From positions 1,117 to 65,116 of the forward strand of contig JAXGTH010000001.1 in assembly GCA_040775045.1 (NCBI GenBank): a stretch of 64,000 nt of DNA, written 5' to 3'. The notes beneath the pieces were generated by a model. That model was not told the origin of the DNA. It did no database searches and saw only the letters and a program-made list of their open reading frames with translations. Both the position numbers and the translations under genes were made by a program. The stretch is from Bacteroidales bacterium (GTDB taxonomy: Bacteria > Bacteroidota > Bacteroidia > Bacteroidales > B18-G4). Position 1 is the first letter of the stretch. Each line of letters begins with the position of its first letter. Shown here one piece after another: positions 5,661 to 59,434 of this stretch.

Positions 5661-5664
5661 TTGG

Positions 5665-15036: not shown

Positions 15037-16278
15037 ATGAACCTTAAAGCTTTGAAACTCCTCATCGTTACACAGTACTACCCGCCGGAGACCGGTGCAG
15101 CACAAAACCGGCTGCATGAGCTTGCCATCAGGCTAAAGGCTAACGGGGTCGGGGTGAGCGTGCTAACAGCCATGCCCAATTACCCGCAAATGAGGGTTTA
15201 TGACGGTTACCGTGGCAGGTGCCGCATGAAGGAGGAGATCGACGGGATCACGGTTTACCGCTCCTGGATCTTTGCCGGAAGCAGCAGGTCGATCTTCATC
15301 CGGCTGCTCAATTATTTTTCTTTGGTGTTTACATCTTTTTTTGCCGGTTGGTTCCGAACAGGCAAATGTGACCTCATTATGTGCGAATCGCCTCCGCTTT
15401 TTCTGGGTATTTCAGCCTACCTGCTGTCGAAGGTCAAACGGGCCGGATTTGTGTTCAATGTTTCGGACCTCTGGCCCGAAAGTGCCGAAAAACTGGGACT
15501 AATCAGGTCACGCTTCCTGCTGGGCCTCAGCACCCGGCTCGAAGAGTTTTTGTACCGTAAAGCCCTGCTTGTGACCGGCCAGACACGGGGCATTGTCGAT
15601 AACATTTCAGGGCGGTTTCCGGCAAAAAAGGTTTACTGGCTTCCCAACGGGGCCAACCTCCGGCTTTACGAACCCGGGCGGATAAGAGGGAACTGGCGTA
15701 ATGATCATGGTTACAGGGATGAGGATTTCATCATCTTCTATGGCGGTATACTGGGGCATGCCCAGGGACTGGAGGTCATCCTCAGGGCGGCCCACAGGCT
15801 GAGGGAACATAAGGATATCAGCTTCGTGATCATGGGCAATGGACCCCGGAGGGAATGGCTGATCAATGAAAGGGACAGGCTGGCGCTGAAAAATGTAAGT
15901 TTCTTCGATACCGTTATAAAATCGAAGGTCCCGGTCATTTTGAATACCATTGATGTTTCAGTGATCCCCCTCAGGAAACTCGACCTGTTCAGGGGGGCCA
16001 TCCCTTCGAAGATCTTTGAGAGCCTGGCCATGAAGAAGCCCGTATTGCTCGGCGTGGAAGGTGAAGCGAAGCAACTCTTTATCGATGACGGGAAATGCGG
16101 CCTGGCCTTTGAACCTGAAAACGACCTCGATCTATCGGAAAAGATATTACTTTTATACCGCGACAGGCAAATGCTTTTGCAGATGGGTGAAAATGCCAGG
16201 AGCTACGTGGAGGAGAAATTCGACCGCGACGTCATCACCGACGACTTTTATCAGGTACTTACCAATATTGAACGATAA
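15037..16278 (+). CDS. Glycosyltransferase family 4 (WcaI-like)
   Basis: 'LIVTQYYPPETGAAQNRLHELA' is a WcaI-like N-terminus, and there is a C-terminal GT-B 'E..A..KPV' region. Confidence 0.85.
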   Translation: MNLKALKLLIVTQYYPPETGAAQNRLHELAIRLKANGVGVSVLTAMPNYPQMRVYDGYRGRCRMKEEIDGITVYRSWIFAGSSRSIFIRLLNYFSLVFTSFFAGWFRTGKCDLIMCESPPLFLGISAYLLSKVKRAGFVFNVSDLWPESAEKLGLIRSRFLLGLSTRLEEFLYRKALLVTGQTRGIVDNISGRFPAKKVYWLPNGANLRLYEPGRIRGNWRNDHGYRDEDFIIFYGGILGHAQGLEVILRAAHRLREHKDISFVIMGNGPRREWLINERDRLALKNVSFFDTVIKSKVPVILNTIDVSVIPLRKLDLFRGAIPSKIFESLAMKKPVLLGVEGEAKQLFIDDGKCGLAFEPENDLDLSEKILLLYRDRQMLLQMGENARSYVEEKFDRDVITDDFYQVLTNIER

Positions 16279-17542
16279 GATCTTGTTCCTCAGCAATAAA
16301 TATATCGCCCGGCTTTACCAGTACGAACTGATCGCCCTTGCCTTCCTCCTTCCCATTTACAGGAAAGTGATCCCTTATGCCATTGCCCTGATCGTGGTCA
16401 CCTGGTTCCTCGAGGGTGATTTCATGGCAAAGATCAAACGAGTGGTTAATTCAAGGCACAGGCGCTACACTCTGCTTTTCGCCTCCCTTTATGTTGTCTA
16501 TGCCATAGGATTGCTATATACGGAAAACCTGGGTGTCGGGTTTTTTGACCTGGAGGTGAAACTATCGCTGTTTATTTTCCCTGTGGTGTTCAGCAGTTTA
16601 CTGCCGGAAGTGTTCACTCCGGTGAGGGCCCGTGGGGTACTCTGGGCATTTGTTTTCGGTGTCTTTGCTTCGATGCTCCTGTGCTACGGCGTGGCCCTTT
16701 CGGATTACATCAAAAGTGGTTCGCTGACGGCTTTCTATTATAACCGGCTTTCGGTGCTTATCCATCCTTCTTACCTGTCGATGTATACCAGTTTTGCCAT
16801 CGCCATATTATTATATTTTCTATACAGGGGATTTATTATCGGCCGCATCAGACAGGGACTTGCCATATTGCTTGTCATGATGTTCGGGTTTTTTGTGGTC
16901 ATGCTGAGTTCCAAGGCAGGGATACTGGGCCTTGCATTCATCATCGCCCTATTTGCCGCCTACCTGATCCTTGCCGAACGAAAGCCGGTGAAAGGCCTTT
17001 TATCCGGTATGGCAATGACTGCCGGATTCCTCATACTACTGATGCTTTTTCCTGCCTCTTCGGCGCGTTTCGAGCAGACGCGCGACGCCCTGCAGCGGGC
17101 CGATGTCGCTGCTGATGAGATCGCCAACAGCTCAGGCGAACGCATCATGATATGGTGGTATTCCTTCGAGATCACCAACGAACATTTCCTGGGTGGCGTG
17201 GGCACCGGCGACGTGAAAGCCAACATGCTTCAGAAGTACCGTGAAAAGGGAATGGCCAATGCCCTGGCCCTGGAGCTGAATGCCCATAACCAGTACCTGC
17301 AGACCATGATCGCGATCGGCGTCATCGGGCTCATCGTGCTGATGCTCTGCCTGGTGCTGCCATTATTGTACAGCATGGAGCACCGGCATTACCTTTACCT
17401 TGCATTCCTCATCCTTGCCGGGTTCAATTTCCTCTTTGAGTCGATGCTCGAAACACAGGCCGGCGTGGTGTTCTATGCTTTCTTCAACGCTTACCTTTTT
17501 GCCATAATAAAAGATCCCGCCTCTGATGAAGCGGGATCATAA
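16268..17542 (+). CDS. O-antigen ligase-like (Wzy_C) polytopic membrane protein
   Basis: It has more than 10 TM helices and a central periplasmic loop. The ORF-track start (16061) overlaps GT4 by 218 nt. TTG 16268 overlaps the GT4 stop and is my preferred start, but this is uncertain. Confidence 0.55.
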   Translation: MNDKILFLSNKYIARLYQYELIALAFLLPIYRKVIPYAIALIVVTWFLEGDFMAKIKRVVNSRHRRYTLLFASLYVVYAIGLLYTENLGVGFFDLEVKLSLFIFPVVFSSLLPEVFTPVRARGVLWAFVFGVFASMLLCYGVALSDYIKSGSLTAFYYNRLSVLIHPSYLSMYTSFAIAILLYFLYRGFIIGRIRQGLAILLVMMFGFFVVMLSSKAGILGLAFIIALFAAYLILAERKPVKGLLSGMAMTAGFLILLMLFPASSARFEQTRDALQRADVAADEIANSSGERIMIWWYSFEITNEHFLGGVGTGDVKANMLQKYREKGMANALALELNAHNQYLQTMIAIGVIGLIVLMLCLVLPLLYSMEHRHYLYLAFLILAGFNFLFESMLETQAGVVFYAFFNAYLFAIIKDPASDEAGS

Positions 17543-17560: not shown

Positions 17561-18919
<1,359 letters not shown>

Positions 18920-19087: not shown

Positions 19088-22000
19088 ATGACCTATCAGA
19101 AGCCCATGGAAGAGCACAGCAAGCAGGATAAAGATCTTAAAAGACTACAGGCCGAAGCCCACGAACGGCTCAAGGAACTGGCCGCCATCAACCAGACCAC
19201 ACAGATCCTAACAGAAGGGAAAAGCATAGAAGAAACTCTTGGCAAACTGGTCGATATCCTTCCTCCTGCATGGCAGTACCCTGAATATACTGCTTCGCGG
19301 ATCACTTTTGGCGACCTGGAATTTACCAGCCGGAATTTTGTACCCACCAGCTGGGTGCAGAAGCAGTCGTTCGAAACCATCGACGGCATCAAGGGGAACA
19401 TCGAGGTCTATTACCTGCGTGAGTTCCCCGAACTTGACGAAGGCCCTTTCATGAAGGAAGAAAGGCACCTGATCAACAACCTGGCGGGGCTGATCACAGG
19501 CTACCTGAACAGCATCAAGGGCAAGAGCCTGCTCAGCAAGGAGCGCGACCGTATCCTCGAGGGCAATACCCGCAAATCGGTAACAACGCCTCTGGTCCAC
19601 AGCAGGCAGCTGCTTCAGAAATTTCTCAACAAGAGTAATTACGACCGTGACATATACCACGACCTGATGCCTTTCAAGGTGAAGGAGATCCTGCTGGTGG
19701 CCACCCTGTACGATGCCTACAGCATCGAAAAGGAAGGCCGGTTCTCCGAACACGTCCTGGGAGAATATCACCAGCTGAACCTGACTTCCGTCCCCAGGAT
19801 CACCGGGGTTTCCAATGAACAGGAAGCCATGGAGCAATTGCGGACAAGGCATTTCGACCTGGTGATCCTCATGATGGGAGCCGACAAGAAATCGCCCATG
19901 GCCCTGAGCTGCCAGATCAAGAACGAATATCCCTATATACCCGTCTTCCTGTTGCTCAACAACAACAGCGACATCGAATACGTGATGAAACGCAAGGCGT
20001 CCACGCAACATATCGATAAGGTCTTCGTCTGGAACGGCGAGTCGAAGGTGTTCTTTGCCATGATCAAGCACGTGGAGGACAAGATCAATGCAGAGAACGA
20101 CACCAGCGTAGGAATGGTCAGGGTGATCCTCCTGGTTGAGGATTCGCCCCAGTACTACTCCCGGTACCTGCCCATGCTCTATAATATCGTGCTCGAACAG
20201 ACCAAAAGGATCATCGACGATGTAAGTACGGACGAACTTTACAAGGTACTGAAACTCAGGGCCAGGCCTAAGATACTGCTGGCTTCAACCTTTGAGGAGG
20301 CCAAAGAGGTGATCGACAATTACAGGGATTACCTGCTCTGTCTTATCACCGACGTTAAGTTCCCGAGGAATGGGGAAGAGGACGAGGATGCTGGCCTCGA
20401 ACTGGTGAAATATGCCCGCAAAGCCATTAAGGACCTTCCCACGATCATACAATCCTCCGATGAGTCGGTGCTCGAGAAAACTTACAAGCTGAAAGCGACT
20501 TTCATCAACAAGAACTCGGAAACCCTGTCGCAGGATTTCAGGAGTTTTATCACGCACTACCTGGGATTCGGGAATTTCGTCTACAGGAACGAGAAGGGCA
20601 AGATCTTCGGGGTGGCCAGGTCGCTGAAGGAATTTGAAAAACAGTTGCAGACCATCCCTGATGAGTCGCTGCTGCATCATGCCAAAAAAGACCATTTTTC
20701 ACTGTGGCTCATGGCAAGGGGTGAAGTGCAGGCTGCAAAGATCCTCAATCCGCATAAGGTAAGTGATTTCAGCAGCCCGCAGAAGGTACGCGAATACATG
20801 CTTGAGATCATCACGAAATTCAGGAACGAGCAGGACAGGGGCAAGATCATTCCTTTCGACAAATCAGCCATCTCCGACGAATCCAATATCGTTTCCCTCA
20901 TGGAAGGATCACTCGGGGGGAAGGGCCGTGGCATCGCTTTTATCAACACGCTGATCTACAATTATGAGTTCAGCCAGTATGTGCCCGATATCCATGTTAA
21001 AGCGCCCAAAACCCTGCTGGTCGGCACGGAGGAGTTTGAATATTTCATGGGGCGCAACAAGCTTTACGATCTGGTGCTCAACGAGATGGATTATACCGTT
21101 GTCAAGAAGGAGTTTCTCAGGGCACCCCTCACCGATACCCTGGTGAAAAGGCTGAAGATCGTTCTGGAAGATATCCGTAAACCCCTGGCGATTCGATCGT
21201 CGGGGTTGTTCGAGGATTCCCTCGTACAACCCTTTGCCGGGATTTTCGAGACCTACATCCTGCCCAACAGTCATCCTGACCCCAGGGTTCGGCTTGAGCA
21301 GGTGATGGACGCGATCAGGCTTGTTTATGCGAGCGTATATTCCGAAACGGCCAGGGGTTATGTCAAGGCCATAAACTATAAGATCGAGGAGGAAAAGATG
21401 GCCGTTGTGATCCAGGAAGTGGTAGGCAATCATTACGGGCGTTATTTTTACCCTCATATCAGCGGGGTGGCCCAATCTTATAATTATTACCCGGTTTCGC
21501 ACATGCAGCCCGAGGAAGGCTTCGTGGTGGCAGCGATAGGCCTTGGCAAATACGTGGTGGAAGGGGAGAAGGCATACCGTTTCTCTCCGAAGTATCCCGA
21601 GATCGATATCAACAGTCCCAAGGACCAGTTCAAGAATTCGCAGGTACAGTTCTTTGCCGTGGATATGGAGAAGACCGAGCCAAACCTGCTCGAAGGCGAT
21701 ACGGCAGGCCTTGCCAGGCTCGACATCGATGATGCCGAGCAACACGGTACCTTGAAACATTGTGCATCGGTATTCAACCCGGACAACAACCAGATCATCC
21801 CGGGGCTGACGCATCAGGGCCCGCGCATCGTTAATTTTGCCAATATCCTCAAGTACGGGTATATCCCGCTGGCAAAGACCATAGAGGTGGTGCTTGATGT
21901 GGTGAAGGAAGCACTCGGGTCACCGGTGGAGATCGAATTTGCCATCGACCTGAACAAGGACAGGAGCGGTCTGGCATCTTTCTATCTGCTGCAAATAAAG

Positions 22001-22564
22001 CCTTTGCTCGGGAGTGCTTCCGATTACAATGTGAACCTCGACAAGATCAAAAAGGACCATATCCTCCTGTTTTCGGAAAAGGGCATGGGCAATGGTATCA
22101 TCGAGGACATCAGTGATGTGGTCTATGTCAATCCCCAGGCCTTCGACAAATCGAAGACGGAACAGATCGCGAAGGAAGTGGATAAGATCAATACAGCCCT
22201 GGTGGCCGAAAACAGGAAATATGTCCTGATCGGTCCCGGGCGTTGGGGTACCCGCGACCGGTGGATCGGCATTCCCGTTGCATGGCCGCAGATCTCCAAT
22301 GCCGGTGTGATCATCGAGACCAGCCTGGAGGATTTCCCGCTCGATGCCTCATCGGGCTCACATTTTTTCCATAACGTGACCTCCATGAATGTGGGATATT
22401 TCACGGTGCAGCCCGAATTCTCGAAAAGTTATATCCGTTATGAAATGCTGGAAAAGCAAGAACTTGTCGGGGAAACTGCATTTGTAAGGCATGTGCGCTT
22501 CCCGAAACCCCTCAAGGTGAGGATGGACGGTAAGAAACGTATTTCGGTGATCACCACGGAATAG
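19088..22564 (+). CDS. 1158-aa multidomain protein: N-terminal coiled-coil/GAF-like region, degenerate receiver, intact-looking receiver, PPDK_N-type ATP-grasp (PEP/pyruvate-binding) domain, conserved C-terminal domain
   Basis: The receiver shows 'VILLVEDS' and 'LLCLITDVKFP'. The ATP-grasp shows 'GSLGGKGRGIAF' and 'PLAIRSSGLFEDS..PFAGIFETY'. The C-terminus shows 'LIGPGRWGTRDRWIGIPVAWPQIS' and 'GSHFFHN'. It is a paralog of 34487-37462. Confidence 0.8.
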   Translation: MTYQKPMEEHSKQDKDLKRLQAEAHERLKELAAINQTTQILTEGKSIEETLGKLVDILPPAWQYPEYTASRITFGDLEFTSRNFVPTSWVQKQSFETIDGIKGNIEVYYLREFPELDEGPFMKEERHLINNLAGLITGYLNSIKGKSLLSKERDRILEGNTRKSVTTPLVHSRQLLQKFLNKSNYDRDIYHDLMPFKVKEILLVATLYDAYSIEKEGRFSEHVLGEYHQLNLTSVPRITGVSNEQEAMEQLRTRHFDLVILMMGADKKSPMALSCQIKNEYPYIPVFLLLNNNSDIEYVMKRKASTQHIDKVFVWNGESKVFFAMIKHVEDKINAENDTSVGMVRVILLVEDSPQYYSRYLPMLYNIVLEQTKRIIDDVSTDELYKVLKLRARPKILLASTFEEAKEVIDNYRDYLLCLITDVKFPRNGEEDEDAGLELVKYARKAIKDLPTIIQSSDESVLEKTYKLKATFINKNSETLSQDFRSFITHYLGFGNFVYRNEKGKIFGVARSLKEFEKQLQTIPDESLLHHAKKDHFSLWLMARGEVQAAKILNPHKVSDFSSPQKVREYMLEIITKFRNEQDRGKIIPFDKSAISDESNIVSLMEGSLGGKGRGIAFINTLIYNYEFSQYVPDIHVKAPKTLLVGTEEFEYFMGRNKLYDLVLNEMDYTVVKKEFLRAPLTDTLVKRLKIVLEDIRKPLAIRSSGLFEDSLVQPFAGIFETYILPNSHPDPRVRLEQVMDAIRLVYASVYSETARGYVKAINYKIEEEKMAVVIQEVVGNHYGRYFYPHISGVAQSYNYYPVSHMQPEEGFVVAAIGLGKYVVEGEKAYRFSPKYPEIDINSPKDQFKNSQVQFFAVDMEKTEPNLLEGDTAGLARLDIDDAEQHGTLKHCASVFNPDNNQIIPGLTHQGPRIVNFANILKYGYIPLAKTIEVVLDVVKEALGSPVEIEFAIDLNKDRSGLASFYLLQIKPLLGSASDYNVNLDKIKKDHILLFSEKGMGNGIIEDISDVVYVNPQAFDKSKTEQIAKEVDKINTALVAENRKYVLIGPGRWGTRDRWIGIPVAWPQISNAGVIIETSLEDFPLDASSGSHFFHNVTSMNVGYFTVQPEFSKSYIRYEMLEKQELVGETAFVRHVRFPKPLKVRMDGKKRISVITTE

Positions 22565-22767: not shown

Positions 22768-23631
22768 ATGAGCTACGAACTGATCTCTCTCAAACTTAAA
22801 TGTCCTGTTTGCGGGAAATCGCTGATGGATAGTGAACACCTGGTGGACAACGAACCCAGCATTTACCTGAATGTAAAAATGGCAGGGAAAAGCGGTGAGA
22901 TACGCCTGAGTTCGATCTATGGCAGTTATAATTACACGACCAATATCGAGATGCCGAAGGGTGAGGTGGCAGAATTTTACTGCCCGCACTGCAGCGCAGA
23001 GATTACCTCGGATGTCGAGTGCCTGAGTTGCAGGGCCCCCATGGTACCTTTTTACCTGGATATGGGTGGGAAGGTGACCATCTGCTCGAGGAGCGGATGC
23101 AAGAACCACTTCGTCGAGTTCGAAGATCTCTCCGTGGCCCTCAGGAAATTATACCAGGAATACGGGCTTGCCGGAAAAGACAGTTTCAGGCCCGACAGGG
23201 ACAGGGTCAGGGCGGAACAACCCGTTGATGAGGAAAAGGAGATCCTTGAATCGGGCACTTATCTGAATTCCTATTGCCCGCATTGCCACAAGAGCCTGAT
23301 CGAGGAAAATATGCTGAAGCTGAAAATACACAACGGGGAGGAGGGTTTCCTTTTATTAAGCCCGTACCTCAATGTATTCACCAGCAAGTCGACCATCTTT
23401 CTCGAAGAGGACAAGGCATTAAAGGATGTGCGTTGCTGGCATTGTGGAAAAAGCCTTATCCCTGAACAAAAGTCATGTGGCAAATGTGGTTCCGATGTCG
23501 TCAAGATAGAGGTCAGTGCCCGCACCAAACTGATCGATTTTTATATCTGTACCAAAAAGGGTTGCCGCTGGCACGGGCTCAGCGACGATGATTATTACGA
23601 TATCCGTTTGCAGGACAGCCTTGAATGGTGA
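22768..23631 (+). CDS. Cys-rich protein made of two tandem ~125-aa 8-Cys zinc-ribbon/rubredoxin-like modules
   Basis: Module 1 carries CPVC..CPHC..CLSC..CSRSGC. Module 2 carries CPHC..CWHC..CGKC..CTKKGC. Module 2 aligns by eye with the N-terminus of the NfnB-like protein. Confidence 0.7.
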   Translation: MSYELISLKLKCPVCGKSLMDSEHLVDNEPSIYLNVKMAGKSGEIRLSSIYGSYNYTTNIEMPKGEVAEFYCPHCSAEITSDVECLSCRAPMVPFYLDMGGKVTICSRSGCKNHFVEFEDLSVALRKLYQEYGLAGKDSFRPDRDRVRAEQPVDEEKEILESGTYLNSYCPHCHKSLIEENMLKLKIHNGEEGFLLLSPYLNVFTSKSTIFLEEDKALKDVRCWHCGKSLIPEQKSCGKCGSDVVKIEVSARTKLIDFYICTKKGCRWHGLSDDDYYDIRLQDSLEW

Positions 23632-23657: not shown

Positions 23658-24482
23658 ATGTTCCAGATCGTCAGAAAACAGGAAATGGCCAGGGGAACGA
23701 TCATACGTTTCGACCTGAGTGCCCCGAAGATCGCCAAAAAGGTCAAAGCCGGGCAATTTATTATCCTGAGGGTGAACGAAACCGGTGAGCGTATTCCCCT
23801 TACTGTTGCGGATAAGGACGAATTTGCCGGCATCATTACCATCATCTTCCAGGTGGTCGGTAAGACTACGGCCTTGATGCGCTCGCTTAACGAGGGCGAC
23901 CTGATCAGGGACGTGGTAGGCCCCCTCGGGAAACCGGCTCATGTCGAAAAGGTGGGAACCGTGGTGATGGTGGGCGGCGGGACAGGTGTAGCCATCCTCC
24001 ACCACGTGGCCAAAGCCTTTAAGGAAGCCGGCAATTTCGTGATCAGCATCGTCGGTGCCCGCGACAGGGAAATGCTTATCCTGGAGAATGAGATGAAGCA
24101 GATCAGCGATGAACTGGTGGTCACGACCGACGACGGCAGCTATGGTGAAAGGGGATTCGTTACGGATCCGCTGAAAAAGTACCTCGACGAACGCTACGAC
24201 ATCAAGCTTGTGTATGCCATCGGGCCCATCATAATGATGCAGAATGTGGTGAAACTGACAAAAAAGTACAAGATGCCCACCATGGTCAGCCTGAACCCCA
24301 TCATGATCGACGGTACGGGAATGTGTGGCGGCTGCAGGGTTAAAGTCGGCGACAAGGCCCAGTTCTGTTGCGTCGATGGCCCCGATTTCAATGGCTTCGA
24401 AGTTGATTTCGAAGAATTGATCAACAGGAATTCACTTTATCTGAAAGAAGAGAAAGACTCACTGCTTTTCTCGATCAGGTAA
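23658..24482 (+). CDS. nfnA: NfnA/SudB-type subunit (FAD/NAD(P)-binding, PyrK-like, 2Fe-2S)
   Basis: 'RIPLTVAD', 'VMVGGGTGVA' and the C-terminal 'GMCGGCRV...FCCVDGP' cluster motif. Confidence 0.85.
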   Translation: MFQIVRKQEMARGTIIRFDLSAPKIAKKVKAGQFIILRVNETGERIPLTVADKDEFAGIITIIFQVVGKTTALMRSLNEGDLIRDVVGPLGKPAHVEKVGTVVMVGGGTGVAILHHVAKAFKEAGNFVISIVGARDREMLILENEMKQISDELVVTTDDGSYGERGFVTDPLKKYLDERYDIKLVYAIGPIIMMQNVVKLTKKYKMPTMVSLNPIMIDGTGMCGGCRVKVGDKAQFCCVDGPDFNGFEVDFEELINRNSLYLKEEKDSLLFSIR

Positions 24483-24500: not shown

Positions 24501-26330
24501 ATGTTAGACCAGGATGTTAAATACCTAAAATTTAAGACCTATCTTAATACTTACTGTCCGCATTGCCACGAGAGTTTCAATGTTGAAAAAAAGGACCGTA
24601 AGCAGATCAATTTTAAAGCGGTATATAAAAACGAAGACATCGACCTGGTCCTCAGTCCCTATCTCGACGTTTTTGAGGTGGAGGCCTCCACTGAGATTAT
24701 CCTGGGTGATACTGTCGATGATATCAAATGCCCGCATTGTGGCAAAAGTTTGATCCATAAGGATATGCCATGTGGAGAATGTGGTTCTCCGGTTGCCGAG
24801 GTGATCGTGTCGGCAGCTTCACGGCTCATCCCGTTTTTCCTCTGTTCCAAATATGGTTGTGAATGGCATGGGCTGAGCAAACGCGACGAGCGGCATATCA
24901 AGCTGAAGATCCCGAGGCAGGAGATGCCTGAGCAGGATCAGACCCTTCGCGTGCACAACTGGCAGGAAGTGCCATACGGTTATACCTCCGAACTGGCCCT
25001 GCTGGAGGCGGGCCGGTGCCTGCAGTGTAAAAAGCCTATGTGTGTTGAGGGTTGCCCGGTAAATGTCGACATCCCTTCGTTCATTGCACTCGTGGCCGAA
25101 GAGAAATTCAATGATGCGGCCAAGAAGATCAAGGAAAGGAATGTTTTTCCCGCCATCTGCGGCCGGGTCTGCCCCCAGGAGAGCCAGTGCGAATCGAAAT
25201 GCGTGCTGGGCCATAAGGACCAGCCTGTGGCTATCGGAAGGCTTGAACGTTTTGTTGCCGATTATGAACGTAAGATGGACCTGGTAAATGTTCCGACCAT
25301 CACAGAGAATACAGGCCAAAAGATCGCAGTGGTGGGTTCGGGCCCGGGAGGTCTCACAGTGGCTGCCGACATGCGGCAACTGGGTTACAGCGTTACGGTT
25401 TATGAGGCCCTTCATGAAACGGGAGGCGTGCTTACCTATGGCATCCCCGAGTTCAGGCTGCCCAAATCCATCGTGCAGTTCGAGATCGAGTACCTGAAGC
25501 AAATGGGTGTTCGCTTCGAGCTCAACCACGTGATCGGCAATATCCTCACCGTTGATGAATTGCTCGAACATTTCGATGCCGTCTTTGTAGGTGTAGGAGC
25601 AGGATTTCCCTTGTTCATGGGACTTGAGGGCGAAAGCCTGGGTAGCGTCTTTTCAGCCAATGAATATCTCACCCGGATGAACCTGATGAAGGCCTACCGC
25701 TTCCCTGAATACGACACTCCCATGCCTAAAGGGCACAAGGTGGTGGTGGTCGGTGGCGGCAATGTGGCCATGGACTGCGCACGTACCGCTGCACGATCGG
25801 GGGCCGATGAAGTGACCATCGTGTACCGCCGCTCACGGCATGAACTTCCCGCCAGGGCAGAGGAGGTACACCATGCTGAAGAGGAAGGGATCAGATTCAA
25901 ACTGCTGACCAACCCTGTCAGGTACATCGGTACCGACAATAACAAGGTAAAGGCGGTTGAATGTATCAGGATGGAACTGGGCGAGCCGGACGCCTCAGGG
26001 CGGAGACGCCCTATCCCCATACAGGATTCGAACTTTACGATTGAATGCGACATGGCCATCGTGGCTATCGGCAATGGCCCCAATCCCATCATCTTCAACT
26101 CAACCCCCGATATGGAACTCAACAAATGGGGCTATATCAAAACAGATCCCGAAAGCAATGAAACTACAAAGGCTTTCGTCTATGCGGGCGGCGATATCGT
26201 TACAGGTTCGGCTACGGTGATCCAGGCCATGGGTGCCGGAAGGATAGCTGCAAATGCCATGCATGAGCGACTGACTGCCATACGTGAAAAAAAGAAAAAA
26301 CCTGCCCCGAAGAAGAAGACCGTTAAATAG
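24501..26330 (+). CDS. nfnB: NfnB/SudA/GltD-type subunit with an N-terminal zinc-ribbon module fusion and a Lys-rich tail
   Basis: Residues 1 to ~140 carry CPHC..CPHC..CGEC..CSKYGC. The GltD core follows: 'CLQCKKPMCVEGCPVNVDIPSFI', 'ICGRVCPQE..CE..C', 'VAVVGSGPGGL', 'VVVVGGGNVAMDCART'. The tail reads 'REKKKKPAPKKKTVK'. Confidence 0.85.
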   Translation: MLDQDVKYLKFKTYLNTYCPHCHESFNVEKKDRKQINFKAVYKNEDIDLVLSPYLDVFEVEASTEIILGDTVDDIKCPHCGKSLIHKDMPCGECGSPVAEVIVSAASRLIPFFLCSKYGCEWHGLSKRDERHIKLKIPRQEMPEQDQTLRVHNWQEVPYGYTSELALLEAGRCLQCKKPMCVEGCPVNVDIPSFIALVAEEKFNDAAKKIKERNVFPAICGRVCPQESQCESKCVLGHKDQPVAIGRLERFVADYERKMDLVNVPTITENTGQKIAVVGSGPGGLTVAADMRQLGYSVTVYEALHETGGVLTYGIPEFRLPKSIVQFEIEYLKQMGVRFELNHVIGNILTVDELLEHFDAVFVGVGAGFPLFMGLEGESLGSVFSANEYLTRMNLMKAYRFPEYDTPMPKGHKVVVVGGGNVAMDCARTAARSGADEVTIVYRRSRHELPARAEEVHHAEEEGIRFKLLTNPVRYIGTDNNKVKAVECIRMELGEPDASGRRRPIPIQDSNFTIECDMAIVAIGNGPNPIIFNSTPDMELNKWGYIKTDPESNETTKAFVYAGGDIVTGSATVIQAMGAGRIAANAMHERLTAIREKKKKPAPKKKTVK

Positions 26331-27892: not shown

Positions 27893-28411
27893 ATGCGGAT
27901 TGAAAGAATAGATGTGAAGCGGGAAACCGACGAGCAGGCTGCGGTCGATACCGGGTTGCTCAACCCCCTGATCGATAAGTATAAAAACCAGAAAGGAAAT
28001 CTCATTCCCCTGCTCCAGGGGGCGCAGGATATCTACGGTTATATCCCGCGCGAAGCTTTTGAAAAACTTTCGGCCGAAACCGGGATACCCCTCAGCGAGA
28101 TGTACGGGGTAGCCACCTTTTATGCGCAGTTCAGGCTGAAACCTGTTGGAAAGCATATCATAAAGGTTTGCCACGGCACAGCCTGCCATGTCCAGAATGC
28201 CAAATCGATCACAACTTCCCTGAAGGAGGCCCTCAAAGTGGACGACGGCGGAACCACGGAAGACGGGCTCTTCACCCTCGAGTCGGTAGCATGCCTGGGT
28301 TGCTGCTCCCTGGCACCGGTCATGATGATCGGCAACGAAACCTACGGCAAGCTTACAGGTGCCCAGGCTGTGAAGATCGTAAAGAACATCAGGATCAGTG
28401 AAAACAATTGA
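27893..28411 (+). CDS. NuoE/HydC/HndA-like thioredoxin-like [2Fe-2S] subunit
   Basis: 'LIPLLQGAQD', 'KVCHGTACH' and 'VACLGCCSLAPVMM'. Confidence 0.9.
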   Translation: MRIERIDVKRETDEQAAVDTGLLNPLIDKYKNQKGNLIPLLQGAQDIYGYIPREAFEKLSAETGIPLSEMYGVATFYAQFRLKPVGKHIIKVCHGTACHVQNAKSITTSLKEALKVDDGGTTEDGLFTLESVACLGCCSLAPVMMIGNETYGKLTGAQAVKIVKNIRISENN

Positions 28412-28437
28412 TTTGACAACACTTTTGAAACAATAAT

Positions 28438-30213
28438 ATGGAAACAAAAGTAATCGTTGGTCTCGGAAGTTGCGGCATCGCTGCCGGAGCGGGAAAAGTG
28501 TACGACAAGATAGCGGCCATCAAAAAAGCGGAGAACCTCACCTTCGAATTGAAAAAGACCTCGTGTATCGGTATGTGTTACCGGGAGCCGCTGGTCGAGA
28601 TCATCGACGATTCGGGAAGGTACCTTTACGGCGATATCGACGAAGAGCGCATCATTGAGGTGATCGATAAGCATGTCGGGCAGCAGAATCCCGTGAAGGA
28701 ATTCGTGGTGCAGTCGGACCTCTTCGAGACCGTCGACAACGAATATACCAACGACCAGGTGAAGATCGCCCTCCGTAACTGCGGGTATATCGATCCGGAG
28801 AGTATAGAGGAATACGAGGCCAGGGACGGATACCGTGCCATCCGCAAGATCGCGGGACATGGCATGTCGAGGCTCGATGTGATCCAGGAAGTCATCGCTT
28901 CGGGCCTGCGCGGCCGAGGGGGCGGGGGCTTCCCGACAGGGTTGAAATGGAAATTTGCGAACAACAACAAAGCCGATGAAAAATATATCATCTGTAATGC
29001 CGACGAGGGCGATCCCGGTGCTTTCATGGACCGTTCCGTGCTGGAGGGCGATCCCCACTCGGTGCTCGAAGGGATGATCATCGGGGCATACGCCATCGAG
29101 GCTACCGGCGGGGTGATCTATTGCCGTGCCGAGTACCCGCTGGCCATCAAACGCCTTCGCATTGCCATCGGGCAGGCCCGCGAAAAGGGCTACCTGGGGA
29201 AGAACATCCTCGGGATCGAGGGCTTCAACTTCGACATCTATATCAAGGAGGGTGCCGGGGCATTTGTGTGCGGGGAGGAAACCGCACTGATCGCCTCGGT
29301 AGAGGGCCAGCGCGGCATGCCACGCAAGCGTCCGCCCTTCCCGGCTGCTTCAGGATTGTGGAAGAAGCCCACCAACATCAATAACGTGGAAACCTTTGCC
29401 AACATTCCCTGGATCATCCAGCACGGGGCTTCCGAATATGCCAGGTACGGTACGGAGAAGAGCAAGGGCACCAAGGTATTTGCCCTGGCCGGCAAGATAA
29501 AGCGTTCAGGGCTGGTGGAAGTGCCCATGGGCATGAGCATCAGGGATGTGATCTTCAAGCTTGGCGGAGGGATTCAGGATGACAAGGAATTCAAGGCCGT
29601 GCAGATGGGCGGACCCTCGGGGGGCTGCATCCCGGCACACCTGGCCGACACCATCGTCGATTATGACTCGGTGAATGCCACCGGCGCCATCATGGGTTCC
29701 GGCGGGATGGTCGTGATGGACGAAACTACCTGTATGATCGACGTGGCCAAATTCTTCCTCGACTTCACGCAGAAGGAATCCTGCGGGAAATGTACCTTCT
29801 GCCGCATAGGCACCAAACGTATGCTGGAGATCCTTACAAGGATCACTGAAGGGAAAGGTGAAGAGGGCGACATCGAAAGGCTGGAGGAACTGGCTTACCA
29901 GATCAAGGACAACTCGCTTTGCGGCCTTGGGCAGACAGCTCCCAACCCGGTGCTCACCACCATAAAATACTTCAGGGATGAGTATGAGGCCCATATCCGG
30001 GATAAAAAATGCCCGGCCCACGTCTGCACCAACCTGCTCACCTATACCGTCGATGCCGAAAAGTGCACGGGCTGTACCGTATGTGCCAAAAATTGCCCGG
30101 TAGAGGCCATCAGCGGCGAGCGTAAGGAGGTCCACTTCATCGACCAGGAAAAATGCATCAAGTGCGGTGTGTGTTACACCAAATGCAAGTTCGACGCCAT
30201 AATCTTATCATAA
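28438..30213 (+). CDS. NuoF/HydB/HndC-like NADH-binding FMN/FeS subunit (N-terminal 2Fe-2S domain, C-terminal 2x[4Fe-4S])
   Basis: 'GRGGGGFPTGLKWKF' (FMN site), 'ESCGKCTFCR', 'CTGCTVCAKNCP' and 'CIKCGVCYTKC'. Confidence 0.9.
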   Translation: METKVIVGLGSCGIAAGAGKVYDKIAAIKKAENLTFELKKTSCIGMCYREPLVEIIDDSGRYLYGDIDEERIIEVIDKHVGQQNPVKEFVVQSDLFETVDNEYTNDQVKIALRNCGYIDPESIEEYEARDGYRAIRKIAGHGMSRLDVIQEVIASGLRGRGGGGFPTGLKWKFANNNKADEKYIICNADEGDPGAFMDRSVLEGDPHSVLEGMIIGAYAIEATGGVIYCRAEYPLAIKRLRIAIGQAREKGYLGKNILGIEGFNFDIYIKEGAGAFVCGEETALIASVEGQRGMPRKRPPFPAASGLWKKPTNINNVETFANIPWIIQHGASEYARYGTEKSKGTKVFALAGKIKRSGLVEVPMGMSIRDVIFKLGGGIQDDKEFKAVQMGGPSGGCIPAHLADTIVDYDSVNATGAIMGSGGMVVMDETTCMIDVAKFFLDFTQKESCGKCTFCRIGTKRMLEILTRITEGKGEEGDIERLEELAYQIKDNSLCGLGQTAPNPVLTTIKYFRDEYEAHIRDKKCPAHVCTNLLTYTVDAEKCTGCTVCAKNCPVEAISGERKEVHFIDQEKCIKCGVCYTKCKFDAIILS

Positions 30214-30236
30214 ACGAAAATCAAAGGACCAGCATA

Positions 30237-33200
30237 ATGAGTGAAAAGGTAAATGTTATACTGAACGGAAAGATCGTTCCCGGTATCAAGGGGGAAACCA
30301 TCCTCCAACTGGCCAAACGAAACGGGATCGAAATACCTACCCTTTGCAACGACCCCCGGCTTGAACCCTACACCTCGTGTTATGTTTGTGTGGTGGAGGT
30401 GGAAGGTCTCAGGGGCCTCCAGCCTTCATGCTCCACGAAGATATCGGAGGGGATGCGGATCGAAACGCATAACGAAAAGATCGCCGGAGCCAGGAAAACC
30501 GCCCTCGAACTGATCCTGAGCAATCATTATGCCGACTGTATCGGGCCATGCAAGCAAACGTGTCCGGCAGGTGTTGATGTCCAGGGGTATATCTCGCACA
30601 TCGAAAAGGGACAATACCACGATGCCGTGGCACTCATCAAGGAAACGAATCCCCTGCCCGCCATTTGCGGCCGTGTATGTGTGCGCCCGTGCGAGGTGGC
30701 ATGCCGCCGCAACCTGCTTGATGAAACTTCTCCTGTCGGGATCGACTACCTGAAACGCTTCGCGTCGGATTACGACCTGGAATCGGAAAATAAATGGAGA
30801 CCTCAGGTCAAGCCTGAAACTGGCAAAAAGGTTGCCATCATCGGTGCCGGCCCGGGAGGCCTCTCTGCCGCCTTCTTCCTGCGGAAGGAAGGCCACGATA
30901 TCGACATCTTCGAAGCCAGCCCCAAAGCGGGCGGATGGCTGAGGTACGGCATCCCTGAATATCGCCTGCCCAACGATATCCTGCAGAAAGAGGTTGACAA
31001 CATCACGGAAATGGGTGTACGCATCCATTATAAGAAACGCCTGGGTGATAACCTTAAATATGCTGACCTGCAAAAGAAATACGATGCCGTGGTACTTGCC
31101 ATAGGTTCGCAGAAAGGGACCATGATCGGGGTGGAAGGTGATGATGCCGAGCATGTCTTTTCAGGGATCGACTTCCTCAAGGAAATGGAGATGACCGGGA
31201 AACGATACGACTTCACTGGCAAAAGAGTTGCCGTGGTGGGCGGTGGGAATACCGCCATGGACTGCTGCCGTACTTCGATGCGTTGCGGTGCCGAAAAGGT
31301 ATTTGTCATCTACCGGCGTACCGAAAATGAGATGCCTGCCAACCCCATCGAAATCCATGAGTCGAAACTCGAAGGAGTGGAATACATGCTCCTCACCAAT
31401 CCGGTGAAGATCAACAAATCAAAGGACGGCAAGGTAAGGTCGGTCACCTGCCTGAAAATGGAACTGGGCGAACCTGATGCTTCAGGGAGGAGAAGGCCCG
31501 TGCCTATCCAGGGTTCGGAATTCGACCTGGAGGTTGATTTTGTGCTGGCCGCCATCGGGCAAAAGACGGATGTTGATTTCACCGACGACATGAACAAGGC
31601 CGTGAAGAAGGGTGAACTCAAGCTGAATCGCTGGGGCGATATCGATGCCGATCCGAAAACCTTGCAAACCGGTGTCGAGAACGTATTTGCCGCCGGGGAT
31701 AGCGTAACAGGCCCTGCCACACTGATCCAGGCCATCGGGCAGGCCAGGATCGCAGCCCACAGCTGCGACCTCTATCTTCGTGGTGAGGAGGTCAGTCCCT
31801 TCCCTTATGAATTCTTCAGCAGGCGCGACAACTTCAAGACACAGGTTAAGGAAGATTATACCGGGAAATACAGCAAGCAGGAGCGGGAAGAAATGCCCAC
31901 CCTCGACCCAAAGAAAAGAAAGAATTTCAAGGAGGTGGAGCTGGGATATGAAAGTGAGGAGGTGGCTAGACATGAAGCGCTGCGCTGCATGGAATGCGGA
32001 TGTACGGAGCTGTATACCTGCGACCTGAAAAAATATGCCACCGAATACCAGGCCCGCCAGGAAGGAGTGAGGGGCGAATATAAGGAATACGGGGTTGATT
32101 TCCGGCATCCTTTTGTCGAGATCGACAACAACAAATGCGTACTGTGTGCCCGCTGCGTCAGGATATGCCGCGATGTGGTCGGGGCCAATGCGCTTGGCCT
32201 GGTCAACAGGGGCTTCGACACCTTTGTTGCCCCCAGCATGGGCAACACATTGCAGGATACCATGTGTGAAAGCTGTGGCATGTGTATCAGCACCTGTCCG
32301 ACCGGAGCGATAACCGAGAACGTTCCATTCAAACCCGGCCCGGTAAGGCTCGAAAAAGTACAGGGCATCTGCAACTTCTGTTCCATCGGGTGTGAACTCG
32401 ACTATGAACACAAAAGCGGTTTCGTGATGCGTGTCGAAGGTCGCGACGGCCGTGTGAATGCCAACGGCAACCTTTGCAAGTACGGCAAGTTTGGTTATAA
32501 AAACCTGAACGACAAGTCGCGCCTGACAAAACCCATGATGAAGATCAACGGACGGTTCGAGGAGATCGGTTTCGATGAGGCATTCAGCATCATGGCTGAG
32601 AAAATTAAGTCCGTCGCACCCGACGACAATGCCTTCTTTGCCGGTGCACGGCTGAGCAATGAGGAGCTGTACCTGATCCAGAAGCTGGCCCGGGCCGGTG
32701 CCGGGACCAATAATGTAACATCTTTCCATTACCTGAACAGGGGGATGGGTTATGCGGGCAATTCAAGGGCGAACGTCCCCTTTACACAGTTAAAGGACGC
32801 CAGCAGGATATACCTGATCGGGGCGGAATTGAACCGCGATAATCCCGTCCTGGGCTTCATGGTGAACAATGCGAAGGTGATGCATCATGTCCCCGTTGAG
32901 CTCGTTACTGTTCATGACCCGAGCAGCATGGAGCACAAGGCCGGCAAGACGCTGAAAGTTAAGTCATATTACCATTTCATCAAGGCAGTGAACTACTACC
33001 TCGTGGCCAACAATTTCCATAACGGGCTCTTCATCGGCGATCTTTGTGAAGGTTTTGCAGCATACAGGGAAGACCTGCTGAAAGAAAATTTCGTCGATCT
33101 CATCGAAAAGTCAGGGGTGCAGTTCATGGACAGTGTTATCGAGTTTGCCAAGGCATACAACAATGAGCTGAATGCCGTGATCATCTTTTCCGAGAAAGAA

Positions 33201-33935
33201 CTGTGTTCAAATGCCTGCAGCGAGCTGTTTAATCTTGCCATGATCACCGGAAAGCTTGGGAAAACGGCCAACGGGCTGGTGAGCATCAAGGAAAAGAACA
33301 ATGCTCAGGGTATCTTCGATATGGGCATTTGCCCTTTGCTGGGAGTAGGCGGCATTGATATCCTCGACAAGAAACTCCAGGCGGGCATGAAAAAACTCTG
33401 GAAGGTGAAATCACTGCCTTCGGATGTTAATGCCAGCCAGTACGAGAGGCTTGAAAAGGGTAAGCTGAAGAACCTGTTCATCTTTGGTGAAGACCCGCTG
33501 GGGTGTACCAACGACAAGGTCAAGGTGGCCGGCTGGCTTACGGTAGCCGATTTTGTGGTGGTAATGGACTATTTCATGACCGGAACCGCGGCCCAGGCCG
33601 ACCTGGTGCTACCGGCAAGCTTCCCCTTTGAGTCGGGTGGTACCTTCACCAACACACAAAAGGTGATTCAGCACTTTGAGGCCGGTTTCGAGCCGGAAAA
33701 CGGGATGACTACACTGGAACAGCTGGCCATGCTGATGAAACACCTCGACATTCAGCAGGAAAGCACTCCGGATTCCGTGATGGCAGAGATCACAAAACTG
33801 CTTCCCGGGACAGATATCGACGGGAAGTACGCCTTTGCGACCACCAGGGAAACGAACAACTGCCATATGTTCGATCACGGCTGCGATCATATCGTGAAGT
33901 ATTTTGATGATGAATTCAACAACGCCTTTAAATAA
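30237..33935 (+). CDS. 1232-aa fusion subunit: NuoG-type N-terminal [2Fe-2S], inserted GltD/NfnB-like FAD/NAD(P)H module, [4Fe-4S] region, and a truncated molybdopterin-oxidoreductase-like domain without catalytic Cys/Sec
   Basis: The start is set at ATG 30237 ('MSEKVNVILNGK') after the nuoF-like stop. Motifs in order: 'LCNDP..SCYVCVVEV..SC'; 'CIGPCKQTCPAGVDVQGYI', 'ICGRVCVRPCEVAC', 'VAIIGAGPGGL', 'VAVVGGGNTAMDCCRT'; 'CVLCARCVRIC', 'CESCGMCISTCP', 'CNFCSIGC'. The FdhF 'CCARVUHGPSV' position reads 'TSFHYLNRGMGY'. Confidence 0.85.
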   Translation: MSEKVNVILNGKIVPGIKGETILQLAKRNGIEIPTLCNDPRLEPYTSCYVCVVEVEGLRGLQPSCSTKISEGMRIETHNEKIAGARKTALELILSNHYADCIGPCKQTCPAGVDVQGYISHIEKGQYHDAVALIKETNPLPAICGRVCVRPCEVACRRNLLDETSPVGIDYLKRFASDYDLESENKWRPQVKPETGKKVAIIGAGPGGLSAAFFLRKEGHDIDIFEASPKAGGWLRYGIPEYRLPNDILQKEVDNITEMGVRIHYKKRLGDNLKYADLQKKYDAVVLAIGSQKGTMIGVEGDDAEHVFSGIDFLKEMEMTGKRYDFTGKRVAVVGGGNTAMDCCRTSMRCGAEKVFVIYRRTENEMPANPIEIHESKLEGVEYMLLTNPVKINKSKDGKVRSVTCLKMELGEPDASGRRRPVPIQGSEFDLEVDFVLAAIGQKTDVDFTDDMNKAVKKGELKLNRWGDIDADPKTLQTGVENVFAAGDSVTGPATLIQAIGQARIAAHSCDLYLRGEEVSPFPYEFFSRRDNFKTQVKEDYTGKYSKQEREEMPTLDPKKRKNFKEVELGYESEEVARHEALRCMECGCTELYTCDLKKYATEYQARQEGVRGEYKEYGVDFRHPFVEIDNNKCVLCARCVRICRDVVGANALGLVNRGFDTFVAPSMGNTLQDTMCESCGMCISTCPTGAITENVPFKPGPVRLEKVQGICNFCSIGCELDYEHKSGFVMRVEGRDGRVNANGNLCKYGKFGYKNLNDKSRLTKPMMKINGRFEEIGFDEAFSIMAEKIKSVAPDDNAFFAGARLSNEELYLIQKLARAGAGTNNVTSFHYLNRGMGYAGNSRANVPFTQLKDASRIYLIGAELNRDNPVLGFMVNNAKVMHHVPVELVTVHDPSSMEHKAGKTLKVKSYYHFIKAVNYYLVANNFHNGLFIGDLCEGFAAYREDLLKENFVDLIEKSGVQFMDSVIEFAKAYNNELNAVIIFSEKELCSNACSELFNLAMITGKLGKTANGLVSIKEKNNAQGIFDMGICPLLGVGGIDILDKKLQAGMKKLWKVKSLPSDVNASQYERLEKGKLKNLFIFGEDPLGCTNDKVKVAGWLTVADFVVVMDYFMTGTAAQADLVLPASFPFESGGTFTNTQKVIQHFEAGFEPENGMTTLEQLAMLMKHLDIQQESTPDSVMAEITKLLPGTDIDGKYAFATTRETNNCHMFDHGCDHIVKYFDDEFNNAFK

Positions 33936-33945
33936 ATAACAGGAA

Positions 33946-34401
33946 ATGAAAGATCTGACAACATTTGATACCATACTCGATTTTGCCATTGAGGAAGAAC
34001 AGAAAGCGGTGGATTTCTATTCAGAACTTGCCGGACAGGCATCTTCCGACGATATGCGTCTTGTATTCGAGGAATTTGCACAAGAGGAGGTCAGGCATAA
34101 GACGAAACTCATGGAGGTGAAGGAAACAGGCATGACCAACATGCCGCCCGAGAATGTTGCCGACCTTAAGATCGCCGATTATACAGTCAATGTAAAGCCA
34201 ACGCCCGGCATGTCATACCAGGAGGCACTGGTCGTGGCCATGAACAAGGAAAAGGCTGCTTTCAGGCTCTACACTTCATTATCGCAAAGGGCTGATGATC
34301 CGGTGCTTAAAGAGCTTTTTGCCGCTCTTGCCCAGGAGGAATCAAAGCATAAACTGAGGTTCGAGGTGGAATATGATGAGTATGTGCTGAGGGAGAATTA
34401 A
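33946..34401 (+). CDS. Rubrerythrin/ferritin-like di-iron four-helix protein
   Basis: It has two E...ExxH pairs: 'EEEQKA...QEEVRHK' and 'NKEKAA...QEESKHK'. Confidence 0.7.
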   Translation: MKDLTTFDTILDFAIEEEQKAVDFYSELAGQASSDDMRLVFEEFAQEEVRHKTKLMEVKETGMTNMPPENVADLKIADYTVNVKPTPGMSYQEALVVAMNKEKAAFRLYTSLSQRADDPVLKELFAALAQEESKHKLRFEVEYDEYVLREN

Positions 34402-59294: not shown

Positions 59295-59325
59295 GCCCAT
59301 TGCTACCGCCCTCCCGTCCATACTT

Positions 59326-59388: not shown

Positions 59389-59434
59389 AACCATAATCCG
59401 CCTGATCGAGTATAAGGATAATTGCAGTATTATT

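Follow-up and report, generated by a model that had tools for sequence, protein, structure and literature searches.

A family of receiver-bearing PPDK_N-type ATP-grasp proteins often encoded beside glutamate dehydrogenase genes in Bacteroidales and other loci

Results

The locus and its two ATP-grasp paralogs

In this work, we analyzed a 64,000-nucleotide stretch of DNA from a Bacteroidales bacterium (assembly GCA_040775045.1, contig JAXGTH010000001.1, positions 1,117 to 65,116 of the forward strand; hereafter the window, numbered from its first letter) and, specifically, its open reading frame (ORF) at 19088-22564, whose product we call Q. A first-pass annotation made from the sequence alone had read Q as a large receiver-coupled protein with an ATP-grasp domain of the type found in pyruvate phosphate dikinase (PPDK) and phosphoenolpyruvate (PEP) synthase (Pfam PPDK_N), devoid of a phosphohistidine swivel domain and of a PEP/pyruvate TIM barrel, and as the first of two paralogs. 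The second paralog is real and corresponds to the ORF at 34487-37462, whose product we call PAR. On the other side of Q, in divergent orientation and separated from it by a spacer of 171 bp, lies a gene for glutamate dehydrogenase (GDH), which is the gene found most consistently beside family members. The features on which the analysis centres are the following:

17561-18916, minus strand: NADP-specific GDH gene (Pfam ELFV_dehydrog_N and ELFV_dehydrog; NF006929 773.8 bits, cut-off 536)
19088-22564, plus strand: Q, whole ORF, 1158 residues, with GAF-like module, pseudo-receiver, receiver, DUF5752-like domain, PPDK_N ATP-grasp and C-terminal domain (CTD)
19142-19537, plus strand: putative GAF-like sensor module, Q residues ~19-150, present in a single copy in Q
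19673-20092, plus strand: pseudo-receiver REC1, Q residues ~196-335, with a weak Pfam Response_reg match at residues 235-298
20114-20557, plus strand: receiver REC2, Q residues ~343-490, with the full set of phospho-acceptor residues
20558-20902, plus strand: DUF5752-like linker, a beta-hairpin followed by helices, Q residues ~491-605
20909-22015, plus strand: PPDK_N ATP-grasp, Q residues 608-976 (Pfam PF01326, E 2e-36)
22055-22561, plus strand: CTD, Q residues 990-1158, ~170 residues, family-specific; codon of His1092 at 22361-22363
34487-37462, plus strand: PAR, 991 residues, with the architecture of Q minus the GAF-like module (Pfam PPDK_N 9.4e-41, Response_reg 7.1e-7)

The Q reading frame opens with ATG and its translation over 19088-22564 contains no internal stop. 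All the motifs quoted in the first-pass annotation were located at the expected positions, that is, LLVATLYD at residues 202-209, FDLVILMMG at 256-264, LLVEDS at 348-353, L-ITD at 419-422, F-INK at 472-475, GSLGGKGRG at 607-615, RSSGLFEDS at 703-711, PFAGIFETY at 715-723, GPGRWGTRDRWIGIPVAWPQIS at 1049-1070 and GSHFFHN at 1090-1096, and the domain order it proposed is correct. Database searches returned more than 5000 homologs of Q, one of them 100% identical, and more than 8000 matches to PAR; a profile of the CTD searched against 1.84 billion representatives retrieved 2170 clusters at 50% identity with E ≤ 1e-3 and 575 with E ≤ 1e-30. Because of these homologs and clusters, Q cannot be a chance ORF. 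In the source databases the homologs go by "PEP/pyruvate-binding domain-containing protein", as had been predicted, by "phosphoenolpyruvate synthase" or by "hypothetical". PAR is 37% identical to Q across Q residues 183-1150 (tblastn), and its landmarks are the acceptor D247, GPGRWG at 878 and GTHFFQN at 919, which places its invariant histidine at His921. A scan for sigma-70 promoters and terminators around Q remained at background level and carries little information, as the hosts use other promoter types. The PADLOC defence models gave zero family matches to Q, PAR or the neighbouring zinc-ribbon protein described below.

The sensory half of Q

The N-terminal module is defined by the signature ERLKEL..IN.T..I...LP..WQYP....RI...W..Q.F.TID..G.IE..Y..FP..EGPF..EER.LI.N., of which 221 copies were counted among the homologs, at one to four per protein (41, 83, 2 and 2 proteins with 1, 2, 3 and 4 copies, respectively). 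Tandem repeats occur, for example, in the homologs P0030, P0031 and P0062 and in the metagenome locus L147 (1714-3342). The top PDB matches of the module profile were the GAF domains of Aquifex Nlh1 and Nlh2 (E 0.004, with both domain ends aligned), in agreement with the GAF-like N-terminus suggested earlier; no Pfam GAF match to the module was found in the scan of Q-family homologs. We consider "GAF-like" a reasonable, though weakly supported, label for this sequence-defined module.

The two receivers share homology, with an hhalign probability of 90% (E 1.6e-6), and align to CheY in the correct register with E-values of 0.01-0.02; in each of them strand 1 is followed by an unusual insertion. 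REC1 is degenerate, as had been suspected: "AT" stands at its acidic pocket and, in FDLVILMMG, a Met occupies the position equivalent to CheY Asp57. REC2 is intact, with E351/D352 as the acidic pair, D422 (codon 20351-20353) as acceptor, S456/S457 and K475; hhalign places CheY D57 onto D422 and T87 onto the QSS motif, and the FINK motif supplies the Lys. These acceptor residues are kept in the Q and PAR families alike. The Response_reg (PF00072) scores were 21.1 bits for Q and 29.8 bits for PAR with a Pfam cut-off of 30.2, a threshold reached by the homolog P0160 (32.6 bits) and by the protein of the metagenome contig L130 (36.6 bits).

REC2 is followed by the linker, which PF19027 (DUF5752) matches in several homologs with E ~1e-5. 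In the AlphaFold2 (AF2) model it consists of two strands (8-11 and 17-21) and a helical part (24-92), and sequence conservation is concentrated in FG.F and SL..H....H.S.W..AR.

The ATP-grasp domain and the absence of a TIM barrel

The ATP-grasp domain of Q is of the PPDK_N type and its motifs, GGK, RSSxxxEDS..QPFAG..TY, EIEFA and LQI(K/R)P, are those of PEP synthase and rifampin phosphotransferase (RPH) and are intact. The family profile matched the ATP domain of RPH in the PDB (5hv6, E 1.7e-4), with the AVRSS..ED....FAG..TY block aligned. The AF2 model of residues 490-1158 (pLDDT 82.6) retrieved in Foldseek RPH (5hv3, E 1.1e-12), PEP synthase (2ols, 4.1e-10) and PPDK (1.6e-7), the E-values over the RPH, PEP synthase and PPDK targets, 1kbl among the latter, ranging from 1e-12 to 1e-5; the TM-score with 5hv6_B was 0.69, normalised to the target.

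The TIM barrel is missing, in line with the first-pass annotation. The corresponding Pfam model (PF02896, PEP-utilizers_C) had no match in Q, and only 182 residues, modelled as a single alpha/beta domain, follow the ATP-grasp. The distance from the end of PPDK_N (976) to the CTD (990), ~15 residues, leaves no room for a substrate-binding domain of the RPH type. The NCBIfam models of PEP synthase, PigC, RedH and rifampin phosphotransferase align to Q over the ATP-grasp alone, and the best of them (NF004881) scored 54 bits against a cut-off of 883, the scores of the others likewise lying well under their own cut-offs.

An invariant histidine in a family-specific C-terminal domain

The CTD stands out by its conservation. 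The alignment shows as invariant GNG, GPGRWG, D, E, S-x-G-x-H-F-F-x-N and D, with MDGKK near the end, so that R, D, E, S, H, N and D make up its invariant polar residues. Of 150 representatives at 50% identity, 144 keep G-[ST]-H-F-F-x-N, and 137 have Ser or Thr immediately before the invariant His. The AF2 model of the CTD alone (pLDDT 90.8) has the element order b-b-a-b-a-b-[His]-a-b-b-b, with His1092 in a loop after a parallel strand and directly before a short helix; the central His domain of PPDK has the same order of elements. In the model of ATP-grasp plus CTD the His loop has a pLDDT below 50, which would be compatible with a mobile catalytic loop and proves nothing.

Searches for a canonical swivel were consistently negative. 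The swivel domain PF00391 had no Pfam match in the whole of Q (E ≤ 0.1) or in 29 isolated CTDs (E ≤ 10), the GG..[SC]H[AG]A motif was found in 0 of 240 homologs, a CTD hidden Markov model (HMM) run against PDB sequences retrieved nothing relevant, and Foldseek with the CTD alone gave a best E of 0.14 and TM-scores of at most 0.34. We also compared a 164-sequence CTD alignment by hhalign with five PDB-verified swivel sequences, with the PPDK His domain alone and with an enlarged 123-sequence profile; the probability was below 1%, with E ~0.1, and two incompatible registers were obtained (His-to-His and GIPV-to-GIPA). As these conflict, neither is trustworthy; the greedy path against the five swivel domains places His1092 onto PPDK His455. 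The earlier statement that Q lacks a canonical swivel-His domain is thus borne out by the profile searches and by Foldseek with the CTD alone.

The length of the Foldseek alignments of the ATP-grasp plus CTD model depended on the target: the isolated RPH ATP domain aligned over 377-389 columns, full RPH over 413-445, PEP synthase over 475 and PPDK, in 10 of 12 matches, over 673-699 (590 for 1vbg and 463 for 1jde). In PPDK the His domain follows the ATP-grasp directly, and in RPH it lies 450 residues downstream. The ~250 columns added against PPDK are those expected if the alignment extended from the CTD onto the His domain, which is suggestive. We regard it as plausible, at about even odds, that the CTD is a cryptic, strongly diverged phosphohistidine carrier. 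The first-pass description of Q as the nucleotide-binding half of a dikinase therefore stands as far as the canonical swivel and the TIM barrel are concerned, but it undervalues the CTD, which is present in every member examined and has an invariant [ST]-His.

Family architectures

The CTD was C-terminal to PPDK_N in all eight Pfam-scanned proteins of varied architecture, with or without receivers, in tandem or fused, and also in three partner proteins described below. The smallest family form has ~570 residues and consists of this core only, a ~715-residue form adds the linker domain (tblastn coordinates), and the commonest form is the ~990-residue REC-REC protein; forms of ~1150-1560 residues carry at least one GAF-like module and those of ~1640 residues are tandem fusions. 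Since the CTD accompanies the ATP-grasp in every protein scanned, we consider the two together as the conserved catalytic unit, and the receivers and GAF-like modules as regulatory add-ons.

Linkage to glutamate dehydrogenase genes

Three samples of loci were examined. The Bacteroidales sample comprised 80 species-representative loci of Q orthologs, of which the 67 with at least 3 kb of upstream sequence were used for the upstream counts; these 80 best-matching genome loci all belong to uncultured anaerobes, namely Bacteroidales, Lentimicrobiaceae and related metagenome-assembled genomes. A GDH gene was found upstream of Q within 3.5 kb in 45 of the 67 loci, and downstream in a few more. PAR adjoins the Q ortholog in 19 of the 80 loci, and for 13 of these 19 PAR copies a GDH gene lies on the same strand at a distance of at most 400 bp. 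In 6 of those 13 loci this is a second GDH, ~60% identical to the GDH of the window, and in the other 7 it is the GDH upstream of Q.

Beyond the close relatives, nine representatives that are 31-40% identical to Q and PAR were taken as a remote sample, one of which (L090) is too short to judge. GDH was directly upstream and on the same strand in six of the eight informative loci (L081, L082, L083, L084, L087 and L089) and absent in L086 and L088. Five of these six remote GDHs belong to a 427-429-residue type that is 33-35% identical to the GDH of the window. As the linkage spans GDH subfamilies, it is not a matter of inherited synteny alone. A further, independent sample consisted of 80 metagenome loci, retrieved with the remote clade as seed, that held 87 family genes. 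GDH lay within 3.5 kb of 40 of the 87 and of 20 of the 37 with full flanks; the median gap was 249 bp, and all four relative orientations were seen. Four related metagenome loci are on contigs labelled human gut metagenome. Given one or two GDH genes per genome, the probability of such adjacency arising by chance is well below 1%. This strong GDH link of the Q family is previously unreported.

Partner proteins and regulators in remote GDH operons

In three remote loci the gene next to GDH and the REC-type family member encodes a second, type-2 protein composed of ATP-grasp and CTD, and in P0241 and P0264 this protein is fused to the first unit, which is there a core without receivers. The type-2 partners, all of them PPDK_N plus CTD with GPGRWG and GTHFFQD, are:

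L083, 4792-7968
L082, 4427-6856
L087, 5641-7935

Except in L087, the type-2 unit begins with a GAF-like module that shares homology with residues 19-154 of Q. Its C-terminus is, in L083 and P0264, an NTP_transf_2/Pol-beta nucleotidyltransferase domain with the GS-x(n)-D-x-D motif; there is no NTP_transf_2 domain in L087 or P0241, and the L082 protein is cut at the contig end. NTP_transf_2 is the superfamily of GlnE and GlnD.

Two regulators were observed next to remote GDH genes. Directly upstream of GDH, L089 encodes a 400-residue PAS plus GAF-like plus GerE/LuxR helix-turn-helix regulator (5319-6521) that is 26% identical to Q residues 4-196, and in that lineage the same sensor module may control gdh transcription too. 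In L084 (2347-7507), where the family member next to GDH is a fused form, a hybrid histidine kinase (HisKA-HATPase_c-REC) is divergent from GDH, which is also flanked by a homolog of the SelO protein-adenylyltransferase; the kinase could be the missing partner kinase, or a coincidence. The operon content, with GDH, the NTP_transf_2 partner and the L089 regulator, fits a dedicated GDH control module.

Other genes in the window

The remaining genes of the window that were analyzed are listed here:

22768-23631, plus strand: zinc-ribbon protein, 287 residues (Pfam Zn_Ribbon_1 and DZR)
23658-24482 and 24501-26330, plus strand: NfnA-like and NfnB/GltD-like pair, NAD(P)H/ferredoxin oxidoreductase
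27893-34401: redox block, with NuoE-like 27893-28411, NuoF-like 28438-30213, oxidoreductase fusion 30153-33935 and rubrerythrin 33946-34401
56031-62969: lanthipeptide-type cluster, with LanB N-terminal part 56031-58424, LanB C-terminal part 58425-59294, C39-peptidase ABC exporter 59291-61624 and HlyD-family protein 61635-62969

The zinc-ribbon gene follows Q in 17 of 80 related loci. Residues 153-282 of its product, the C-terminal half, share 42% identity with an N-terminal extension (24504-24908) of the NfnB/GltD-like protein encoded two genes downstream, and represent a duplicated module. The NfnAB-like genes exceeded their NCBIfam cut-offs (NF004862, 384 bits with a cut-off of 220; TIGR01316, 583 bits with a cut-off of 471.75), and their synteny with Q is limited to a subset of loci (L003, L006, L011, L028, L043 and L048). 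A thioredoxin-like protein and a peroxiredoxin are also encoded between Q and PAR. The redox block may encode an electron-bifurcating NAD(P)H/ferredoxin complex; its NuoE/NuoF-like genes accompany Q in some loci only. The largest ORF of the block, at 30153-33935, was considered as the paralog of Q, being the next large ORF, and was rejected: its 1260-residue product is a GltD/NuoG/Fdh-like fusion of a GltD-like flavoprotein with NuoG/formate-dehydrogenase-like molybdopterin domains. We treat the genes between Q and PAR as secondary context, in which NADPH supply for the NADP-GDH is a natural theme. At lower coordinates than the GDH gene, the ORF of a GT4 glycosyltransferase (15037-16278) overlaps by ~220 bp a Wzy_C O-antigen-ligase-like ORF with a GTG start (16061-17542), the true start of the latter gene being probably further downstream.

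Discussion

A proposed receiver-gated phosphotransferase of the GDH system

Q and PAR join an intact receiver and intact ATP-grasp motifs to a domain with an invariant His, lack a TIM barrel, and are encoded in linkage with GDH genes. We propose, with a probability of roughly 0.45, that they are receiver-gated ATP-dependent phosphotransferases acting on GDH or on the GDH pathway. The phospho-His chemistry of the CTD, the direction of the control and GDH as its target are what we infer, the chemistry from the known behaviour of PPDK_N enzymes. A partner histidine kinase would phosphorylate Asp422 of REC2 or, in Q, a ligand would alternatively bind the GAF-like module, and the core would thereby be released; the ATP-grasp would then bind ATP and transfer a phosphoryl group to the invariant His1092 of the CTD. 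The characterised PPDK_N enzymes hand the phosphoryl group to a histidine. The CTD would in turn pass it to an acceptor which, because there is no TIM barrel, should be other than pyruvate. The first-pass annotation had called this acceptor unknown, which is no longer wholly so, as the conserved linkage to GDH genes points to the GDH system, most probably to GDH itself or to a protein controlling it. The outcome would be a post-translational switching of GDH-dependent ammonia assimilation or glutamate catabolism under two-component control. We favour GDH or its regulator as the target because of the cascade-like build of these proteins, the tendency of each paralog to stand with a GDH gene of its own, and the nucleotidyltransferase domain of a protein-modifying type that is added in some lineages. 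In its most specific form, the Q family would be a hitherto unrecognised post-translational GDH switch, in which an ATP-driven phospho-His relay from the ATP-grasp to His1092, under two-component control, would phosphorylate GDH or a regulator bound to it, together with a fused nucleotidyltransferase in some lineages. It would then be the GDH counterpart of the adenylylation cascade of glutamine synthetase (GS); we hold this form to be rather unlikely.

Several observations weigh against a receiver-gated phosphotransferase of the GDH system. By Pfam, by the PDB search with the HMM, by hhalign (<1%) and by Foldseek with the CTD alone, the CTD is undetectable as a swivel, and the extension of the Foldseek alignments towards PPDK is an argument of alignment lengths alone. 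Both receivers are atypical, Q reaching 21 bits with Response_reg, under the Pfam cut-off of 30.2, and no histidine kinase gene was found near Q in the window regions scanned (Pfam on the neighbours). GDH adjacency is not universal, as ~45% of the family genes with full flanks, and also L086 and L088, are without it. Moreover, adjacency is blind to the difference between modification of GDH, action on its substrate or product, and co-regulation.

The principal alternative is a small-molecule dikinase or phosphotransferase comparable to rifampin phosphotransferase, phenylphosphate synthase or PigC, the prodigiosin ligase. It would act on a metabolite of the GDH node or on some other small acceptor for which the CTD or the DUF5752-like domain provides the binding site, and the receivers would simply tune this metabolic enzyme. 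The closest solved or curated relatives (RPH; the PEP synthase, PigC and RedH models) all use small substrates, the invariant polar residues of the CTD exceed what a pure carrier needs and suggest a binding site of its own, and both the GDH linkage and the NADPH-forming NfnAB-like genes of the window fit a metabolic role. However, no RPH-like substrate-binding domain is recognisable, the GDH step needs no obvious phosphorylated metabolite, and GAF-like repeats, two receivers and a nucleotidyltransferase-bearing partner are typical of signalling or protein modification, so that we hold a small-molecule enzyme to be rather improbable, if worth keeping in mind. The failure of profile and fold searches to detect a canonical swivel would also be accounted for if Q were literally half a dikinase, without an internal carrier, which passed the phosphoryl group directly to an acceptor, for example the Asp of its own receiver, or to a carrier in trans. 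In phenylphosphate synthase and related phenol-phosphorylating systems, one of which is encoded by the acetovanillone catabolic genes, ATP binding and the His carrier reside on different polypeptides. This arrangement has little probability for Q, as a CTD with an invariant His stands beside the ATP-grasp in every member examined, the Pfam scans of the window neighbours showed no PEP-utilizers carrier gene, and a GGxTSH motif scan of the window and 80 loci was empty; nor do we know of any PPDK_N enzyme that phosphorylates Asp directly.

If the ATP-grasp merely bound nucleotide, Q would be a non-catalytic energy or ligand sensor that controls GDH or a partner by protein contact. Pseudo-enzymes are common in signalling and REC1 is already degenerate, but the catalytic motifs GGK, RSS..ED, E-x-E-F and LQ-x-[RK]-P, like the CTD His, are fully or almost fully conserved between families sharing only 30-40% identity, which is the pattern expected from selection on chemistry and makes this sensor distinctly improbable. 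The source annotations "phosphoenolpyruvate synthase" and "pyruvate, phosphate dikinase" would be correct if we had misread an ordinary PEP synthase or PPDK. We rejected this, and give it practically no weight, as the 54 bits of the best NCBIfam match compare with PEP synthase cut-offs of 598-1063, PF00391 and PF02896 are both missing, and the protein ends 182 residues past the ATP-grasp.

Relation to earlier observations on GDH

GDH is a main entry of ammonia into biomass and a main exit of amino-acid carbon in anaerobic Bacteroidota, members of the human gut included. To our knowledge, there is as yet no molecular description of the post-translational control of GDH in these bacteria. A reversible inactivation of GDH in vivo was reportedly described in Bacteroides fragilis by Yamamoto in 1987; a GDH switch formed by the Q family could, if true, be its molecular basis. 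Likewise, a 1996 study of Bacteroides gdh by Baggio and Morrison is said to have found that a downstream fragment of ~3 kb was needed for enzyme activity in Escherichia coli. On the metagenome contig L130, which has maeB-gdh synteny, a 990-residue family member begins 305 bp past the 3' end of gdh; this keeps the lead of a trans-acting region alive and proves nothing. In Bacteroides thetaiotaomicron, BT1971/BT1972 were considered as a Q/PAR pair between two GDH genes, an assignment that does not hold for BT1971, as this gene encodes a catalase; BT1969 encodes a malic enzyme.

A documented function of the family would have spoken against the first-pass annotation; our literature search on PPDK_N, receiver-output and DUF5752 topics found no published function or study. 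The Q family comprises at least 2170 clusters at 50% identity and, by its receivers, dikinase-type ATP-grasp, His-bearing domain and GDH linkage, is a concrete and testable candidate for the missing GDH regulator. Its members are not PEP synthases, which corrects the names they bear in databases, and the CTD, if it is a His carrier, would be a phosphohistidine swivel domain that has diverged very far.

Comparison with known systems

By structure and by sequence, the nearest ATP-grasp to that of Q is found in RPH (PDB 5hv1, 5hv3 and 5fbs), which likewise lacks a TIM barrel and uses a phosphate acceptor other than pyruvate, as proposed for Q. RPH differs in having a large domain that binds rifampin and, at the C-terminus, a canonical swivel (GG..TH, PF00391), whereas the CTD, the DUF5752-like domain, the two receivers and the GAF-like module are found in Q and not in RPH. 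PPDK and PEP synthase (PF01326 plus PF00391 plus PF02896) share the ATP-grasp family with Q, the Foldseek alignment to PPDK covering ~690 columns, and in both PPDK and Q the ATP-grasp is followed by an alpha/beta domain of ~120-170 residues that carries an [ST]-His where a helix begins. Unlike these enzymes, Q has no TIM barrel, no His domain is recognised in it by profiles, and its N-terminus is made of receivers and a GAF-like module.

As regards its signalling part, Q resembles the enzymatic response regulators CheB, PleD and RpfG, in which an N-terminal receiver with Asp, Ser/Thr and Lys precedes a C-terminal enzymatic output, an output that is predicted in the case of Q; its tandem of pseudo-receiver and receiver recalls PleD. 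No description of a PPDK_N ATP-grasp as the output of a response regulator was found in the literature searched, and if our proposal is true the family would constitute a new output class. The GlnE/GlnD cascade offers an analogy only, in that genes for modifying enzymes rich in sensor domains accompany the gene of a central enzyme of nitrogen assimilation; homology was seen only at the level of the nucleotidyltransferase superfamily, by way of the partner protein, and the proposed target is GDH instead of GS. Altogether, the Q family varies the PPDK_N phosphotransferase theme in a new way, combining a novel His-bearing domain with response-regulator control.

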